The notes under the pieces are model-generated. The model was given only the letters and a program-made list of their open reading frames with translations, was not told where the DNA came from and did not search any database. Below, one piece after another: positions 16,025 to 58,742 of a stretch of DNA of 64,000 bases. The stretch is from Escherichia coli (GTDB lineage Bacteria; Pseudomonadota; Gammaproteobacteria; Enterobacterales; Enterobacteriaceae), in assembly GCF_009931435.1 (NCBI RefSeq), contig NZ_CP043414.1; one strand, given 5' to 3'. Numbering within the stretch: the first letter of the stretch is position 1; each line of letters starts with the position of its first letter. The translations under genes and the position numbers were made by a program.

Positions 16025-16734
16025 ACGTTAACAACGACCGACTCTTCACTGTGCAATATTGTGTCAGGTAGTCACTCTGCGTTCAATTCCAGGGGCCGCT
16101 TTGAGCGAGAAAGAGCGGACTTATCTGTACAAGGGGACTATCCAGCAATGGAGATCACCCATAAGAAAAAAGTACCTGGCTCCCTCGACAACCTTCATCC
16201 GGGAATTTAGCCTCAATCAACATTTTTATATCTGTCAGGTTACTTCATTATGAAAACCGATCAATATCGTTGTTTTTGTTGCAATAGTAGAATACGCCTA
16301 TTTATTCCTCCATTTCTATTAATAACGGCCATAAACCGTTCACTTCACTGATATTTAAAATATGCATCCTTTTCCTGCTTTTCAAGTTGTTCAGCGGCGT
16401 AAGAAAACGTATTAAATATGAATTCGACGATTTAACCATTTCTGTCTGATTGGTAATCATCTGTGATTAATGCTGGTCTATTGATTACGCCAGCATTAAC
16501 CGCTTAGGGATGTATTCTTCCTGATCATATACATCCCTCGAAAAAGAGAGAAAATAAAACTGTGTCCAATATTACTCTACCACTCCAGACCGAAGTATCG
16601 GTAGAATTAGCAGAACGACTGGTACAATAGATTGGGATAGCGTCATTTGTCAGGTATTCCATTGCCTGACAAATGACAATTTTGAGTCAATAGACGTGCT
16701 TCTTGATCATGTCTTACAAATTATACCATGAACC

Positions 16735-42029: not shown

Positions 42030-43103
42030 TTACGAAAGCCCGCTCCCCGCAAGGACTGACGCCAGATACTTTCTGTCCATGGCTGCTTTTCGCATCTTAC
42101 GTCTTAACCCTGCCTTGAATACCTTATCATTCGTCAAAATATTAATTGCGATGTGCCGTATCCCTGAAAATAATTCTGCTGCATTTCCTCTTCTTATTTT
42201 GCAGTCGTCTTCATTCATTACCACGTCCAGACGCCAGTGCAGCTTATTCTCCACGTGCCAGTGGTTTCGGATTGCTGTGGCGAACTTCTCTGCGGTTAAA
42301 TCAGCAGAACTGATATAATATCTGACCGTCATTTCTGGCTCTTTCTTTTGTTCTGCTATTATTGACCGAAAGGAGACTGCCACGCATAATTTCTTCAGAC
42401 CTTTCCATTCAAACGTGAAATCAATAAGTTCATCAGGGACATCGCAAACAATGTGAAGACGGATTTCTTCTCTGCCGTGACTCTTTTCACTAATTGCGTA
42501 ACTGTCATGCTCTGGATTATTTAATTCTTTCAGCGGAAATTTTTCCTCGAAGCCTTTATTTAGCCGCCCCTGGTTTCCTTTTACAGCGAATAAATAATCA
42601 CCTCCCTGTTTTTGTATCTTCTCTGCAATATCTTTCTGGCAACCCATCGCATCAGTTGTGATGATTTTTCCTTTAATATCCAGCATGTTAAGAAGTTCTG
42701 GGATAGCTGTAATCTCATTGGATTTCTCATCCGTCTTGATCTGTCCGATGACCAGACTGTGCATTGTTGAGAACGCACTAATGACATGAATCGCTCCCCT
42801 GCGGCGACTCTTGTCATAAGAGTGCCGGAGCGTTTTTCCATCAATTGCAATGACGCCTTTATCATCTGAAGAATGGCAGTCACGCATCCAGTTAATAAAG
42901 CACTCGTGAAATTTTGCAGGACTGATACAGGATACAACTCTGGCAATGGTATCGTGAACAGGAATACCATTTTCAAAATCACCATATTGCTTCAAAAAAT
43001 CGAGATGTGTTTCCCCAAAATCCTCTATATCTTCCCAACCTTCTGCACCCGAAATAACGGCGCAAATAGTCAACAGTAGAATATCCGATAATTTATGTTC
43101 CAC
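42030..43103 (-). mobile_element. ISAs1-family (H-repeat-associated) transposase, intact ORF
   Basis: 357-aa ORF recognised as H-repeat/ISAs1 transposase ([39 protein letters not shown]...); lies next to the Rhs genes. Element ends (inverted repeats) not determined. Confidence 0.8.
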
Positions 43104-43310
43104 TTTCTAGGCTTGTCTGTAATCGGGGATAATAGAAATATGTTCCATCAATTTTTTAAGTTCCATTTTGTTCTCCTTAATTATGTAAGGAGTATTTGAT
43201 CATGTATAAGCAATAAAAAACAGCTTCAGGTAATGAGGAATATCTCAATTTTTAAACATAAAATGCGAATTGTTTAGTACAAAAAAGCAGCGTTACGTGA
43301 TCTTTCCCTG

Positions 43311-43546: not shown

Positions 43547-43939
43547 TCATTTCATTTTTTTAAAACATACGTTAATGCCATTCACACTTCCACATTCACC
43601 AAAAGCATCAAAATAAATTTCACATTTATTGTTGCCTTTCGAAATGATGCTAACCCCCCATCTTATATTGTTATATTTTTCTTTTCTGAAATACTTCATT
43701 TGCAATAAATCAATTATCTTACCCGCATAGAGATCGCTAAGTTCATTCACCACCACTTTATATCTGTATATTTCATTAAGACCTTCCTTGCTAAGCGGAA
43801 CTAACGTGGTAACATACGATGGAAGATTAACTACCTCTATCGTTTTCACGCTATCTATTCCACACAATTCATTCACTCGCCCCATCCCCAATACCGAACC
43901 AGAAAATAGAGACAATAAAACCATCAAATATTTCATCAT
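43547..43939 (-). CDS. Putative secreted immunity protein for the Rhs2 C-terminal toxin
   Basis: Track ORF starts at GTG 43951, overlapping the Rhs2 stop; ATG at 43939 has a GAGG SD. Sec signal peptide (MMKYLMVLLSLFSGSVLG), about 130 aa, AT-rich, immediately 3' of the Rhs2 toxin domain. No recognised family. Confidence 0.55.
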   Translation of the reverse strand: MMKYLMVLLSLFSGSVLGMGRVNELCGIDSVKTIEVVNLPSYVTTLVPLSKEGLNEIYRYKVVVNELSDLYAGKIIDLLQMKYFRKEKYNNIRWGVSIISKGNNKCEIYFDAFGECGSVNGINVCFKKMK

Positions 43940-43950
43940 AAAAAACCTCA

Positions 43951-46900
43951 CTATTCTGGCGTACCCGTTATTGTCATCGTCTGCAACGGTCCATCCACCC
44001 GATAAAAAGGCAGTCCACTATGAGCTCCTCTGACACACTCATCTAAAGTTTTCGCCGCACGCGATTCAATTATTGTAATAACCCTTGCCTCTTCTTTATT
44101 ATCATATTTCTTATCCGTCCGACTTAAAAGAGCCATGAAATTTTCTTTATCAAGAAGGTAATACTGTGCATGTGCAAACTCATGCCCCAAACCTAATGCA
44201 GGCGATTGTGATTTCGAGTTTAATTCAGTTGAACAAAATAAAGACGCTCTACTATTCCAATATATCGTCATATTATTCGAATTAAATCTACCATTGGTTC
44301 CTTCAATATACTCTATATTTATAGTTTCTTCAGAGCTTGATAAAAAATCTATAGCATCTTTCATTCGTGAATCTTTTTCTAAATACTTAACAGCCTGATT
44401 AAAATCACTTGGATCACCATTAACCTCGAATTTTAAACCCAAAGAATCTATAAACCGAACAGGGTTTAATGGATATTTATACAGATTCCATTCACCTCTT
44501 AGCCCGATTGGATCCTGCGTGATATACCTCCCCTGCAACGGGTCATAGTACCGGTGACGGTTGTAGTACAGCCCCGACTCCTCATCATACTGCTGCCCTG
44601 GCAGACGGTACGGCTGTTGCAGGTGCTCCGGGTTTTCCTCTCCCAGCAGGTTTCCCCACTCGTCATACTCCCCGCGCCACGCCGTTTCCCCTTCCGGGCT
44701 GATAAGCGCCTGCGGCAGCCCACGGTGGTCACAGTGGTAAAGATGAAGTTTCCTCTCCGGGATGTATTCTTCCTCCATCTGGTTGTTCATCTGTTCCGCC
44801 GTCAGCCCGCACTGCGCAAGCCATGCTTCACTCTCCGCACTCACCGCACCCGCGCGCAGTTCCCGCTCCAGCCTCCCCAGCATCACCGACAGCTCCGCCG
44901 GGAGCGTCACACCCGTGTCCTCCTGCAACACCTCCGCCAGGCTACGGTGCCGCGCCTTCGCCTGTTCGCCATTCTCTGTTTCGATTCTCAGGAGCGGCGT
45001 GAAGCTTCCCGGCTGATAAATCGTCTGGATACGTGTGGTGCCGGTCTGTACCGTCGTCAGCCTGTCACCGTCCCACCCGTACCATGTCTCCTCCGGTTTA
45101 CGCGACAGCGACATCCATCCCGTCAGGTCACGCTCCCGCCGCCACACCCGTTTTCCCGTCCTGCGGCCCAGCGGGTCGTAAAGGTAGCGGCTCTCCACCT
45201 GCGGCTCGCCGTGCTGTATCCGCGTGTAGAACACCAGACGGTGCTGGCTGTCGTAATGGTAGTGGTGGGTGCGCTCGTCGTGCATCCGTATCACCCCTTC
45301 CGGGATACGGTCCGTCTTCTCCGCCAGCCTGCCGTATTCATCGTGGCGGTAGACATAGTGCGCATCTTCCGCGATGCGGTTATCCGGCCACGCCGTGAAG
45401 GTGCTGTCCGGGTGCAGTTCCGGGTCCGGCAGCCGGTTTCCTGCCGGGTCCGTCGCATACGGGATATCAATGTCCAGGTTCGCTGCCGTGGTGTGGACGC
45501 CCGTCAGCCTTCCCGTGTCGCTGTAACGGTACTCCCGGCTCTCCTGCGGGCCGCTGATACGCACCAGTTGCCCGTTATCATTCCACGTATACTCACGGTC
45601 AAGCTGCGGAAGGTTCAGGTGCCTGCTCCGGAGCTGGCCTGTGAGGGTGTATGTGCTGGTCAGTTCATATGCGGCATTACTGCCTGCCATGCTGCCGAAG
45701 CTGCGCACCGTCTCACGGTGCAGCCTGTCCCGCGTGTACTCGACCAGCGGCGTTCCGCCCAGCTTCATCCCCGCAAGATAACCGCTGCCATACGTCAGCC
45801 ACTCCACCGGCGGCAGACCGTCCGGCTCCTGACGGGTCGCCAGCCCCTGTTCGCTGTACGCGTGCCCCGTCTCATGCTCCCACAGCATCTCCCCCGTCTC
45901 CGGGTTCTCCACCGTCTGCCGTTCGCCCGTCAGGCGGCCCTTATCGTCATAGCCGTAGTGGACCGCCACACGGTGGCCTTCACTGGTATGGCTGAGGGTG
46001 GTTAACCACCCGTGCTCATCATACTGCCACTGCTCTGCCGCTTCGCCGTTCACCGTCCGGTGCGTGATGCGGTCCGACGCATCGTAGTGCCAGAGGGTGA
46101 TAAGTCCCTCGTCTTCACTGCGGACAAGCTGCCCTGTGGCGCTGTACCGGTAACGCTGTGTCCGTCCGTCAAAGCCGCGCTGCTCCGTCAGGCGGTCCAC
46201 CGGGTCATACAGGAACGTGGACTGGCTGCCGTTCTCATTAGTCAGCGTGGTGATGCGCCCGGCGGCGTCATACCCCATGCTGCGCGTCAGACCGCCCTGC
46301 GTGGTGCTGATAGCTTTACCCCACGCATCATACTGTGTCTCACTGCGGCTGCCGTTCGGGGCAATGATAGCGGTGAGGTCGCCTGCGGCGCTGTACTCAT
46401 AACGGGTTTCACGCCCCTGCACATCCTTCTGACTGACCAGTTGACCACGCGGGTTATAACTGCTGTAAGTGCTGATGCCTTCTTCCCGGTGAACCGCCGT
46501 CCTCTGCCCGTACCGGTCGTACTCATACCGTGTCGTGTACCCCGAGCAGTCCGTGAAGGCCAGCAGTTGACCGTAGCGGCTCCATGCCATCTGTTTTGTA
46601 CTGCCCGTCGCATCCTGTATCCCTGTCGGCAGCTCACTCGCCGGGTCATCATAGCTGTACCGCGTCGTCTCACCGCTGCGCGAGGTCTCCGCCGCCAGCC
46701 TTCCCTTCTCATCATACTCCCGGCTGCTGCGAAGCCCGTCCGGGTACGTCACTGACGTCACCTGCCGCTGGCTGTTGTAGCCATACCGCACCGTCCTGCC
46801 GTCCGGCCCCGTCACCGCCGTCACCGCGCCCGACGCCATATGCAGGCTGTACTCCGTCCGCCGCCCCGCCGCATCCGTCTGCGCCTTCAGCCTCCCCGCC

Positions 46901-48330: not shown

Positions 48331-49323
48331 TCATTGTTTGTTATCAGAAAGTGTTTTATACAGCGGCACATATCCCACGTCTTCCACAAGACTTTGCCCC
48401 TGAGGGCTTAAAAACCAGTCCACTAGTTTTTGTGTTTCCGGTGTCGGCTTTTCGCGGGTGACCATGTAGGCATCCACCACATACGGATAAGTACCGTTGC
48501 GGATATTCTCCACCGTTGGTGCAATACCATTTATTGCCAGCAGCTTAAGATTTGGGCTTATATCCTTATTCATCTGTGTGACATAATAGCGGAAGGTGTA
48601 ACCAATTGAAGGCTGCGTATTCCGGTAGGCAATTACTTTGGTTAACACTCCATTCATAAGGCTTACTTCTGTAGATGTTCTGGCGGGTAGCATCGGTGTC
48701 TCTTTCATCACCTTTGCCAGCATCACCGTCTGGCTACCGGAATCTTCCGGACGCTGCCAGACCTGAATGCGCTCATCACTGCCACCAACCTGACTCCAGC
48801 GGGTGATTTTACCGCTGAAGATATCCCGAACCTGCTGTTCAGTAAAAGAACTGACCGGATTACTGGCGTTAACGATAAAAACAAAGGCTTCGTGGGCGAA
48901 GGGGGTATAAACCAGTTTCACCCCGGCATCGGCAGCCCGTTGTTTTTGTCCTGCGGAAGGCTGGGCAACAAAAATAACATCGGCCTGGCGCTTTATGAGA
49001 TCATTATAGGCTTCTGGTGTACGAGTCGGATACATATAATTCAAACCCGGATCTTGATGGTTATCCCCGGGGATCAAATATCGGTAAGCTGAAGCATACA
49101 GTGGATATAACGCGGTTGCACCACATACCCGGGGCCATTTATTCGAGTTATCAGTGTAGCGTAAAGTGGGTTCTCCTCGTATATTGGTTTTCTCCCAACT
49201 CACTGTTTCTTTTACGCTGTTATCGCCCCCGCCGTCTACACATCCTGACATTAATACCGTCATATAAAATAATACTGGTAACAGGCCCACCCTACGCATA
49301 CAATGATTTAATAAATACGCCAT
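48331..49323 (-). CDS. PstS-like (phosphate-binding-protein fold) putative lipoprotein, orphan
   Basis: Track ORF 48331-49365; start placed at ATG 49323 (GAGG SD 5-6 nt upstream) giving MAYLLNHCMRRVGLLPVLFYMTVLMSGC with lipobox-like LMSGC; PstS-like motifs (VIFVAQPSAGQ..., FTEQQVRDIFSGKITRWSQVGGSDERIQVW); no ABC transporter genes nearby. Confidence 0.55.
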   Translation of the reverse strand: MAYLLNHCMRRVGLLPVLFYMTVLMSGCVDGGGDNSVKETVSWEKTNIRGEPTLRYTDNSNKWPRVCGATALYPLYASAYRYLIPGDNHQDPGLNYMYPTRTPEAYNDLIKRQADVIFVAQPSAGQKQRAADAGVKLVYTPFAHEAFVFIVNASNPVSSFTEQQVRDIFSGKITRWSQVGGSDERIQVWQRPEDSGSQTVMLAKVMKETPMLPARTSTEVSLMNGVLTKVIAYRNTQPSIGYTFRYYVTQMNKDISPNLKLLAINGIAPTVENIRNGTYPYVVDAYMVTREKPTPETQKLVDWFLSPQGQSLVEDVGYVPLYKTLSDNKQ

Positions 49324-49627
49324 ATACCTCACTCTAAAATATTGATTATATAAATACATATGCATAATTATATTTACATCAAATTCTGAATGAACAATTT
49401 AAATTTAGAGAAAGTGAAATTTAATTTTTCGATACTTCCGCATACATATTCCCCTCGCTAAAAAATCATCATTCCACAATCAATCATTAATTACAACTCA
49501 ATATACATCATTTAACTTTCATTAAACTCGCAATTTATTATTACATTGTAGCCATTATGAACTGTCATCACGCACACACTCTACATACACATTAGAAACA
49601 ATATAACCCCATGAGCCATCCTCCGTT

Positions 49628-50074
49628 TCAATACTTAGTGCAGCGTGTCTTAAGGAAATTAGAAGCCACAACATCAATCTTTTCTTTTAAGACTAAATCA
49701 TCCACATAATCACAAGACAAATAGAAGTCATTACCATCGGCCATTATAAATATCCTCATAGGTAAAGATTTATCATTATCAACATGAGCATTCGTAATAA
49801 TCCAATAATAAGGAAATCTAACATTTTTTGTAGGAATACCCAATAAATCATAAGCTTTATTATTATATTCTATCGCTCCCTTAACAAACGTTGGTTTGAC
49901 CTCCTTACCAATAATGCGATGCGACGTATATTCTTCCTTCTCAGCAAACGATTGCATTAATGCCCATATAGGTTTATTTGCCAGCTCACCGTGATGAAAA
50001 ATCCGATAAAAATACACTCCTAAAAAAAATATTAAGCCTAAGCAAACCAATACCATGAGGCAGTTCTTACTCAT
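49628..50074 (-). CDS. Putative membrane-anchored immunity protein for the Rhs1 C-terminal toxin
   Basis: 148 aa; ATGA start/stop overlap with Rhs1; single N-terminal TM helix ([19 protein letters not shown]); AT-rich. No recognised family. Confidence 0.55.
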
Positions 50075-56768: not shown

Positions 56769-57287
56769 TTATGCTTCCAGCGGTGCGCGCCAGTCGTCGG
56801 CACCGGAGGTGCCAGATTTGACGTGTTCCCACTCAATCTTGCGGTAGGCCAGTGAAACTTCGAGCAACTGGGTGAACTCGCGTTTCGCCGGGTCCTGGCA
56901 ATGCGGCATATGCAGTTTCATATCGACAATCGTCGAATCAGTCAGGCGGGTGGTGAAATAATGCTCCTGTTTGCCTTCCACAGATGTACGCCACCAGTGC
57001 AGTTCAGTGGTTGGCAGCATTTCACCGGAGGCCAGTGCGTTGTACATCAGCGGAACCGCTTTGTTCAGCGCCACGGTAAAAATGAACGGCTTGTGAGCAC
57101 GCTGACCCGCAGGCTGACCGGACTGAGGATCGGTCGGGACAGTAACGTTATGCAGGAATTCCTGCACCAGCATCTCGTCTTCGTGCCCCTGCACATAGAT
57201 GTTGCCGACAGAATCAGCGGTAAATGCACCTGCAGTAATATTTCCCTGGGTCTGACCAGTGATGGAGATATAACACGGTGTTGGCAT
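56769..57287 (-). CDS. hcp: Hcp (TssD) tube protein
   Basis: 172 aa, Hcp1-family sequence (MPTPCYISITGQTQGNITAGAFTADSVGNIYVQGHEDEMLVQEF...); directly upstream of vgrG. Confidence 0.85.
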   Translation of the reverse strand: MPTPCYISITGQTQGNITAGAFTADSVGNIYVQGHEDEMLVQEFLHNVTVPTDPQSGQPAGQRAHKPFIFTVALNKAVPLMYNALASGEMLPTTELHWWRTSVEGKQEHYFTTRLTDSTIVDMKLHMPHCQDPAKREFTQLLEVSLAYRKIEWEHVKSGTSGADDWRAPLEA

Positions 57288-57583
57288 TTGTAAACTCCTT
57301 GTTAACGTGGTTAATTACTACTTACAATGACCTGCCGTTAATCCCAGACAGGCAGATGCAGCTCACTTCACGGAACCGCATCATTTTTCAGTATTTTTTA
57401 CATACAAACCGAGCTAGAATTTACGGTTGTCGTAAAAACTATTTTTAAAATCATTAAATCTCTTATTCAGCAATAACTTAATAATATATATCTGGATAAC
57501 TATACCCAACTGTTCAAAGTCCGTATTGCCTCCATAAAATGGCCAAAGCTGAATCATGAATAAATATTGTATTTATCCTTTCT

Positions 57584-57605
57584 GAATTATCATTTTGATA
57601 ATTTT
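57584..57605. promoter_or_regulatory. Candidate Fur-box-like site in the divergent T6SS promoter region
   Basis: GAATTATCATTTTGATAATTTT contains inverted ATTATC/GATAAT hexamers; in AT-rich 700-bp region between hcp and tssB. Weak call. Confidence 0.25.
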
Positions 57606-57982
57606 TGAGATATTCCTTAAAAATACCCACTTACTCAATCACAAAACAAATATATAAACAAGCAATCATTAGATTAGCTTATGTTTAATGAAATTATTAT
57701 ATACTTCAATAAGATACATAAAAACTCTATATTTAAATTATTGCCATAATACACCTGACGCGAATTGCACAGGTTCACACAATCTATTTAACGCTTGCAG
57801 AATACCCCTCTTTACGATCGATAAAAAGTCCTTTTCTTATTTATTTTGAAGCGTAAAATGCGGGGTGATGAAGGAGTGGTGATTTTATTTTCACCGCCAT
57901 CAAGGCGGCATTTCCGATATTTTTTGCGGTACAAATATGCTGTGTTCATGGCCTGTACGAGATAACATGACGGATCACTTTT

Positions 57983-58483
57983 ATGAGCAAAAAATTTGAA
58001 GGCAGCGTCGCGCCTCGCGAGCGTATTAATATATCGTATGTCCCAAAAACAGATGGCCAGACGGCTGAAGTGGAACTTCCGCTTAACATGCTCGTTGTCG
58101 GCGATACCGGAAATACGCAGGAAACATCCTCACTGGATGAACGTCAGGCAGTTTCCGTTAACAAGCACAATTTCGGTGCAGTGATGGCTGAAGCAGCCAT
58201 TGGCCTCAATTTTACCGTCCCCGCCACGCTGAAGGGAAGCACAACGGACGATGAACTGAATGTGGCGCTGAATATCAAGTCACTGGATGATTTTTCACCA
58301 GATAGCGTGGCCCGGCAGGTTCCGGAAGTGAATAAATTGCTGGAATTACGTGAAGCACTGACTGCACTGAAGGGGCCGATGGGTAACCTTCCGGCATTCC
58401 GTACCCAGCTCCAGGCATTGCTGGAAAATGAAGAGTCCCGCGAGCAGTTGCTCAAAGAAATCGGCCAGGTGAGCAATAAATAA
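57983..58483 (+). CDS. tssB: TssB (VipA) sheath small subunit
   Basis: 166 aa recognised as TssB (MSKKFEGSVAPRERINISYVPKTDGQTAEVELPLNMLVVGD...). Confidence 0.85.
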   Translation: MSKKFEGSVAPRERINISYVPKTDGQTAEVELPLNMLVVGDTGNTQETSSLDERQAVSVNKHNFGAVMAEAAIGLNFTVPATLKGSTTDDELNVALNIKSLDDFSPDSVARQVPEVNKLLELREALTALKGPMGNLPAFRTQLQALLENEESREQLLKEIGQVSNK

Positions 58484-58517: not shown

Positions 58518-58742
58518 ATGACGGCACACAAAAATATCTCCGGGACATACCACCTCTCTGTTGCAGACATTCTGCAGGTGGTTTACCAGGTATGTTTCAG
58601 CCCGTCCGTTGAAATCAACCAGGATGGTGTGGCTGCGCTGATTACAACACTGGATCGCCGTATCAGTGATCTATTGGATGAGATTATCCATTTTTGTGAG
58701 TTTCAGCAGAGCGCGTCGCACTGGCAGCGCGTACTTCACTGA
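58518..58742 (+). CDS. Hypothetical 74-aa protein resembling a TssC N-terminal segment
   Basis: ORF between tssB and tssC; C-terminal half (LITTLDRRISDLLDEIIHFCEFQQSASHWQRV) aligns with TssC residues IADIDERISRQMDVIIHAPAFQQVESFWRSL; similarity is protein-level only. Confidence 0.3.
   Translation: MTAHKNISGTYHLSVADILQVVYQVCFSPSVEINQDGVAALITTLDRRISDLLDEIIHFCEFQQSASHWQRVLH

Follow-up and report, generated by a model that had tools for sequence, protein, structure and literature searches.

The window, by which we mean the whole 64-kb stretch of Escherichia coli DNA analysed here, contains a T6SS gene cluster whose hcp and tssB genes diverge from a common intergenic spacer of 695 bp (57288-57982), with hcp on the minus strand and tssB on the plus strand. 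According to their NCBIfam assignments, the genes flanking this pair are vgrG and an Rhs core gene on the left, and tssC, tssE, tssF and tssG on the right. The spacer and its bordering genes are arranged as follows:

56769-57287, minus strand: hcp/tssD, 172 amino acids; the start codon (on the complement) ends at 57287.
57288-57982, no strand: the complete hcp|tssB spacer, which is the bidirectional promoter region (t6sP) of T6SS-2, identified from the NCBIfam flanks, a genome survey and the literature.
57392-57791, no strand: AT-rich core (GC 0.26, A/T tracts and TpA steps), a putative platform for H-NS binding and spreading in this strain.
57983-58483, plus strand: tssB, 166 amino acids; ATG at 57983.

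The spacer is the divergent promoter region of the E. coli T6SS-2 at the aspV island, and has already been described. Among 5426 complete E. coli genomes, 2228 carry it, each as one copy and at 95-99.6% identity, and the aspV tRNA context is found in related genomes. The spacer is 98% identical to that of O157:H7, where the surrounding gene order is the same; the approximately 13 point differences from O157 spare both the Fur-like cluster and the conserved promoter block described below. A rare private variant in the segment 57547-57640 is common to this window and strain 2013C-4282. Several start sites were reportedly mapped in this promoter region by Kim, Lee and Yoon in 2022 (J Microbiol 60:928). 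T6SS-2 is the most prevalent T6SS of E. coli, this allele being carried by about 41% of complete genomes; it has been linked to EHEC virulence, and the attempts of several groups to induce it have failed. The corresponding hcp3|tssB spacer of EHEC EDL933 was named the 'bidirectional promoter' t6sP; its native promoters were not reliably activated by any medium, and Ptac/ParaBAD in place of the spacer drives both operons (PMC13141884). The S. sonnei spacer was cloned in both orientations before GFP, and these reporters stay silent under changes of osmolarity, medium (M9 versus TSB) and temperature and under polymyxin B (PMC10924462). The primers of that study match 57289-57308 (as the reverse complement) and 57963-57982 of the window exactly. 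EHEC EDL933 t6sP and the S. sonnei spacer thus represent the same locus and the same allele with the same flanking genes, and in both organisms T6SS-2 is silenced by H-NS and has no known inducing condition. The original prediction, made from the letters of the window, described this gap as a divergent control region between hcp-vgrG-rhs and tssBC, which is correct and matches the published bidirectional promoter of T6SS-2. As a separate observation, the EHEC papers PMC5363993 and PMC13141884 assign z0264 differently, to Hcp-2 in one and to TssB in the other, so that statements on this promoter that are based on locus tags need a sequence check.

The composition of the spacer sets it apart from its surroundings, with a GC content of 0.328 compared to 0.525 for the whole window (about 0.52 in the flanks). 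Both the lowest-GC 200 bp (57552-57751, GC 0.20) and the lowest-GC 400 bp (57392-57791, GC 0.262) of the 64-kb window lie inside it. Within the AT-rich core, A/T tracts reach 2.7 versus 0.93 per 100 bp, and TpA steps 10.4 versus 4.5 per 100 bp. The spacer holds no open reading frame of at least 60 amino acids, the largest one touching the gap having 56. The gap had been predicted to be AT-rich and free of such frames, which is borne out, and its AT-richness exceeds chance. Two shorter frames were considered as coding sequences and rejected: a 53-residue frame (57688-57849) is frameshifted in O157, and a 39-residue frame (57846-57965) does not survive the indels of E. albertii. Searched against Rfam, the spacer with its flanks gave a single miRNA match at E=0.6, which is meaningless, and a search by eye for sigma-54 or other alternative-sigma motifs in the spacer found none that was convincing. 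Other strongly AT-rich segments of the window (49298-49897, 43903-44502 and 42664-43263; GC 0.29-0.38) lie downstream of the rhs core gene, a pattern that typically marks variable Rhs C-terminal toxin/immunity cassettes; they served here solely as composition controls.

Spacers from E. albertii, Yokenella, C. youngae and both E. coli alleles were aligned, and the comparison was later extended to Salmonella, Superficieibacter, C. farmeri, Enterobacter and Buttiauxella. All of them show the divergent hcp|tssB layout, and the 11 spacers measure 536-705 bp at a GC content of 0.29-0.33. Since all 11 are long and AT-rich, a long AT-rich spacer is ancestral to this T6SS lineage. The second E. coli allele is represented by the APEC/ExPEC (phylogroup B2) strain TW-XM, whose hcp2B|vipA2 pair occupies the same aspV island in the same divergent layout, with an AT-rich spacer of 705 bp that is H-NS repressed and keeps the promoter-like and leader blocks. 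It is nonetheless a distinct allele: its TssB is 55% and its Hcp 94% identical to that of the window, its spacer core is unalignable (37-52%), and it has no Fur-like repeat.

When the window (56769-58483) is set against the ExPEC XM sequence (NZ_CP025328.1, 37507-39234), the two T6SS-2 alleles are discrete, with no intermediates. Their DNA identity is 83-93% in hcp and 48-65% in tssB, and the similarity collapses near 57375, within the spacer. Such a pattern points to separate histories for the hcp-vgrG module and the structural tssB operon, the two meeting at a recombination junction inside the spacer. E. coli strain 1506 (NZ_CP059288.1, 4001-4838) provides a further variant, in which an IS1 follows after about nucleotide 126 of the spacer, the tssB operon is missing, and hcp-vgrG(pseudo)-rhs is left adjoining ykfM and tRNA-Asp; this strain illustrates how T6SS-2 can decay through the spacer.

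If the two ribosome-binding regions are set aside, a single block of the spacer retains at least 85% column identity. Its elements are:

57799-57861, plus strand: conserved non-coding block, candidate tssB core promoter (at least 85% column identity across 6 sequences).
57799-57813, plus strand: sub-block AGAATAC..CT.T of the conserved block.
57821-57837, plus strand: sub-block consisting of an A-tract and a weak -35, TTTTCT.
57854-57859, plus strand: -10 TAAAAT, after a 16-nt spacer from the -35; predicted start near 57866.

This 63-bp block reads AGAATACCCCTCTTT, then ATAAAAAGTCCTTTTC, then GCGTAAAATG, and it is kept in 7 lineages including Salmonella. The -10-like hexamer, TA.AAT, is present in every close lineage, as TAAAAT or, in APEC XM, as TAGAAT. 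The -35 varies, reading TTTTCT in the window and TTCTCA in Yokenella, Citrobacter and Salmonella, and is preceded by the conserved A-tract. The block is probably the tssB core promoter, judged by its conservation and its hexamers; transcription would start near 57866, leaving a leader of about 117 nt. The proposed -35 is poor (3/6), and this promoter was missing from the output of a simple consensus scan. Elsewhere in the window, the conserved sub-blocks have one copy with two mismatches, at 16289, which is without companion blocks and was judged to be a chance match. With its invariant -10-like hexamer, the 63-bp cross-genus block is a better place than the AT-rich core to seek the missing activator as well as the tssB promoter.

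In the mechanism that we propose, two divergent units would start in the spacer, hcp-vgrG-rhs leftward and tssB-tssC-tssE-F-G rightward. The 400-bp core, at 26% GC, resembles the DNA to which H-NS binds and along which it spreads, and this protein would hold both promoters off in laboratory conditions. The tssB core promoter would most likely lie in the cross-genus conserved block 57799-57861, whose upstream A-tract and AGAATAC element could serve as a contact for an activator or for the alpha subunit of RNA polymerase. For the 'high-affinity' H-NS motif TCGATAAATT, the spacer contains 3 matches at up to two mismatches compared to 2.2 expected, which is not enriched beyond composition. In EHEC, H-NS binds between hcp3 and tssB, and the mRNAs of both genes go up upon hns deletion (PMC13141884). 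Wan et al. found T6SS transcripts up to 60-fold higher in an hns mutant, an effect reversed by complementation (PMC5363993). Silencing by H-NS is most likely also at work in this strain, the mechanism being taken from the literature on the 98%-identical allele. A comparison confined to the literature places the T6SSs of Salmonella SPI-6, Vibrio and Edwardsiella beside it, as these are likewise horizontally acquired, have AT-rich promoters and are silenced by H-NS; their promoter sequences are not homologous to the spacer. The EHEC hns mutant produces T6SS proteins in DMEM or MM9 and little in LB (PMC13141884). Because hns deletion alone yields the proteins in those media and not in LB, at least one further, medium-dependent layer of control exists beyond H-NS, with Fur among many candidates for it. 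Taken as a whole, we consider it very likely that the locus is an ordinary T6SS-2 bidirectional promoter and silencing region, silenced by H-NS, whose Fur-like and GATC motifs are by-products of composition.

A complement to this explanation would place the key element at 57799-57836, where an activator binding AGAATAC..CCT would be needed besides relief from H-NS. The element bears a possible resemblance to an RcsB-type box. We hold this activator to be a tentative possibility, which draws on the position of the element just upstream of a weak -35, on its being the sole conserved non-coding sequence from Escherichia to Salmonella, Citrobacter and Yokenella, and on the observation that hns deletion alone does not achieve expression; moreover, RcsB directly controls a Serratia T6SS promoter (PMC5565961). 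Against it, the block could be merely an UP-element together with the core promoter, the likeness to the RcsB box is putative, at 9/14 in the window, and polymyxin B, an envelope stress, left the S. sonnei reporters uninduced (PMC10924462).

Control of these promoters by Fur had been raised as a possibility on the basis of an inverted hexamer pair (about 57584-57605). The corresponding features are:

57585-57627, no strand: three weak Fur-matrix matches in a 12-bp phase, starting at 57585, 57597 and 57609 (10.2, 8.6 and 8.9 bits).
57586-57602, no strand: Fur-box-like inverted repeat ATTATCA-ttt-TGATAAT, a perfect 7-3-7 repeat (12/19 of the consensus, 10.2 bits).

The inverted pair is present as predicted, at 57586-57602, with its hexamers in everted order (ATTATC-5 nt-GATAAT, where the canonical arrangement is GATAAT-n-ATTATC). 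The spacer has 2 loci with a perfect 7-bp inverted repeat compared to 0.77 expected, a marginal excess (P=0.08). Against the 19-bp Fur consensus, the predicted site matches at 12/19 and the best site in the spacer at 13/19; counting consensus matches is uninformative here, as 90% of shuffles reach at least 12/19 and 44% at least 13/19. We also scored the spacer with a Fur matrix, a palindromic 19-mer built from 14 classical Fur-repressed K-12 promoters. This matrix recovers GATAATGATAATCATTATC on its own (14.6 bits), and in a leave-one-out analysis of the 14 promoters genuine Fur sites score 6.4-22.7 bits, with a median of about 15.5. The predicted site is the top match in the spacer at 10.2 bits, a score reached by 39-40% of dinucleotide-preserving shuffles (P=0.39-0.40) and by five other places in the 64-kb window, and the AT-rich control segments reach 11.1-11.3 bits. 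The repeat is real, then, whereas its resemblance to a Fur box lies at the level of chance (10.2 bits, P=0.39). Put through the same test, the validated sci1 boxes give 6.7 bits for fur1 and a promoter maximum of 8.8 bits (P=0.35). The test is low-powered, because the experimentally validated sci1 promoter fails the same shuffle comparison. From these statistics, the Fur reading appears to have no support beyond chance; they give no positive evidence for Fur and cannot show non-binding.

Clusters of Fur sites have a known spacing in multiples of 6 bp (PMC2189734), and the three phased matches reach a cluster score of 27.8 compared to 13.3±5.8 in shuffles (P about 0.02), by a statistic that was defined post hoc. 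The phased cluster was not reproduced in relatives. Across ten independent related spacers, Fur sites are not enriched (Fisher P=0.33 for the best site), and for clusters the Fisher P is 0.07, rising to 0.23 without this window. In E. albertii, substitutions and an insertion of 4 nt have destroyed the left arm of the repeat, and the APEC XM, Yokenella and Enterobacter spacers contain no such repeat. In APEC TW-XM, the clpV2 and hcp2B mRNAs (T6SS2) are unchanged by fur deletion or iron limitation and both are changed by hns deletion, whereas T6SS1 of the same strain is activated by fur deletion and iron limitation (PMC5874247). Two reviews assign Fur to T6SS-1 only.

The same material can be read as the trace of a genuine second-layer repressor, with Fur-Fe2+ dimers sitting on the phased weak sites at 57585-57627, and perhaps at 57559-57577. 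These sites would overlap a distal hcp promoter (-35 ATGATA at 57593-57588, -10 TACAAT at 57571-57566), and iron limitation would de-repress the cluster only after H-NS had been displaced. Such a role for Fur is unlikely in our judgement. Its case is built on the best matrix match with two more at 12-bp steps, on a site that outscores the validated fur1 box of sci1, on the overlap of this site with the -35 of a promoter found by the consensus scan on the hcp strand, and on the appearance of T6SS proteins in the EHEC hns mutant in DMEM/MM9 and not in LB, the former media presumably being iron-poor. These points are outweighed by the chance level of the single site and the post hoc nature of the cluster statistic, by the lack of enrichment in the ten related spacers, and by the higher scores of the AT-rich control segments. 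In E. albertii, the 4-nt insertion that accompanies the loss of the left arm also upsets the spacing within the predicted hcp promoter. The sister APEC allele is Fur- and iron-independent (PMC5874247), although it is distinct and does not carry the repeat, which makes this evidence indirect. Reporters of the same allele were equal in M9 and TSB, with H-NS present (PMC10924462), and the reviews list Fur for T6SS-1 alone. Slightly less probable still is the evolutionary extension of this reading, according to which the EHEC-type T6SS-2 allele, unlike its relatives, would have acquired the phased weak Fur sites as a second lock beneath H-NS. If true, this lock would account for the medium dependence of the hns mutant, which yields the proteins in iron-poor DMEM/MM9 rather than in LB; T6SS-2 could then be switched on by a concrete route, namely iron chelation or the deletion of both hns and fur.

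Returning to silencing by H-NS as the preferred explanation, the remaining motifs to be accounted for are two GATC sites, which had been predicted and are present at 57816-57819 and 57973-57976:

57816-57819, no strand: GATC site 1, between the conserved sub-blocks and about -50 from the predicted tssB start.
57971-57976, plus strand: tssB ribosome-binding region, with GGA 8 nt before the ATG; it overlaps GATC site 2 (57973-57976).

The count of two compares to 2.05 expected from base frequencies and 1.7 in dinucleotide-preserving shuffles (P(>=2)=0.52), and the density is 2.9 per kb in the spacer versus 3.1 per kb in the window. Site 1 exists only in the EHEC-type allele of E. coli, and the aligned position is without GATC in E. 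albertii, APEC XM, Yokenella and C. youngae. At site 2 it is GGAT that is conserved, the full GATC being confined to E. coli and E. albertii and replaced elsewhere by GGATTA or GGATGA. Because it overlaps the tssB ribosome-binding site, the GATC at 57973 lies within the transcribed leader. Among the 11 related spacers, the number of GATC sites ranges from 0 to 3 and their positions vary freely.

The suggestion of joint Fur and Dam control is borrowed from EAEC sci1, a different T6SS cluster (T6SS-1), whose promoter is a Fur/Dam epigenetic switch (PMC3145626). In the sci1 promoter sequence, fur1 is TATAATGATCAAAATTAAA, with GATC-I inside it, and GATC sites lie at -129, -97 and -80. The two promoters are alike in being tssB-proximal in an E. 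coli T6SS and in having weak Fur matches (13/19 and 11/19 in sci1, 12-13/19 in the spacer); they differ in cluster, and their sequences are unrelated. The fur1 box of sci1 lies over a TATAAT -10 that is about 85 nt away from the ATG, and three GATC sites fall within about 50-53 nt. In contrast, the spacer has neither such an overlap nor such a cluster, its Fur-like site being positioned about 265 bp upstream of the conserved -10-like hexamer and 380-398 bp from the tssB ATG. That the spacer is a Fur-Dam ON/OFF switch of the sci1 kind, in which Fur shields a GATC from Dam methylation, methylation blocks Fur and expression heterogeneity is heritable, is extremely improbable: beyond the precedent in an E. 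coli T6SS promoter (PMC3145626) and the presence of a Fur-like repeat and GATC sites in one spacer, the defining overlap of GATC and Fur box is absent (the GATC nearest to the repeat, at 57816, is 214 bp away), no 60-nt stretch holds more than one GATC compared to three within ~50 nt in sci1, the two sites equal the chance expectation, one of them sits in the ribosome-binding site of tssB, their number and position are free to vary among the 11 spacers, and the cluster is T6SS-2 rather than T6SS-1, with a different gene order. The reading as a Dam switch is effectively refuted by this architecture. Of the control by Fur and Dam that the original prediction had, appropriately, offered as an inference, the Dam part fails on architecture and chance counts and the Fur part finds no support beyond chance. 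We interpret the Fur-like repeat and the two GATC sites as probable by-products of AT-rich composition, with no Fur/Dam switch. This chance-level result stops the regulatory model of one T6SS from being passed on to an unrelated one.

The leaders on both sides and the AT-rich core carry several further elements:

57295-57300, minus strand: hcp Shine-Dalgarno sequence AAGGAG, 7 nt before the ATG, read directly.
57355-57382, minus strand: possible stem-loop of 10 pairs in the hcp mRNA leader, from a fold.
57560-57576, no strand: second perfect 7-3-7 inverted repeat, ATAAATA-ttg-TATTTAT, 26 bp from the Fur-like repeat.
57861-57913, plus strand: Escherichia-only leader segment, absent from Yokenella, C. 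youngae and Salmonella.
57947-57958, plus strand: tssB-leader conserved block CATGGCCTGTAC, in seven lineages.

The hcp Shine-Dalgarno sequence is part of a block (57258-57306) that is conserved in all relatives. The stem-loop of the hcp leader is specific to the minus-strand RNA, because its pairing needs G-U pairs. It is kept via one-sided changes in E. coli, in APEC XM (three substitutions) and for the most part in E. albertii, and it is broken in Yokenella and C. youngae; we regard it as a weak candidate, a possible structure. The folds of the tssB and hcp leaders are no better than those of shuffles (z=-1.3 and -0.6, respectively). The second inverted repeat is embedded in a 32-nt segment (57547-57578) that is 100% identical in E. 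albertii though the surrounding DNA has diverged. The Escherichia-only leader segment holds a hairpin, CCGCC-atcaa-GGCGG, which is disrupted in O157. The block CATGGCCTGTAC reads CATAGTCTGTAC in C. youngae and Salmonella, and it lies at distances from the start codon that differ by 17 nt; its conservation suggests that it could be a protein- or RNA-binding site.

Downstream of tssB, a 74-residue open reading frame (58518-58742, plus strand) fills the 310-nt gap between tssB and tssC, and shows a sub-threshold Pfam match to the VipB/TssC N-terminus (E=0.0026). Salmonella has a similar gene of 70 residues, and in APEC XM, Enterobacter, C. farmeri and Buttiauxella tssC begins about 20 nt after tssB. 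There may be a link between this frame and the published claim of separate transcription units for tssB and tssC in EHEC.
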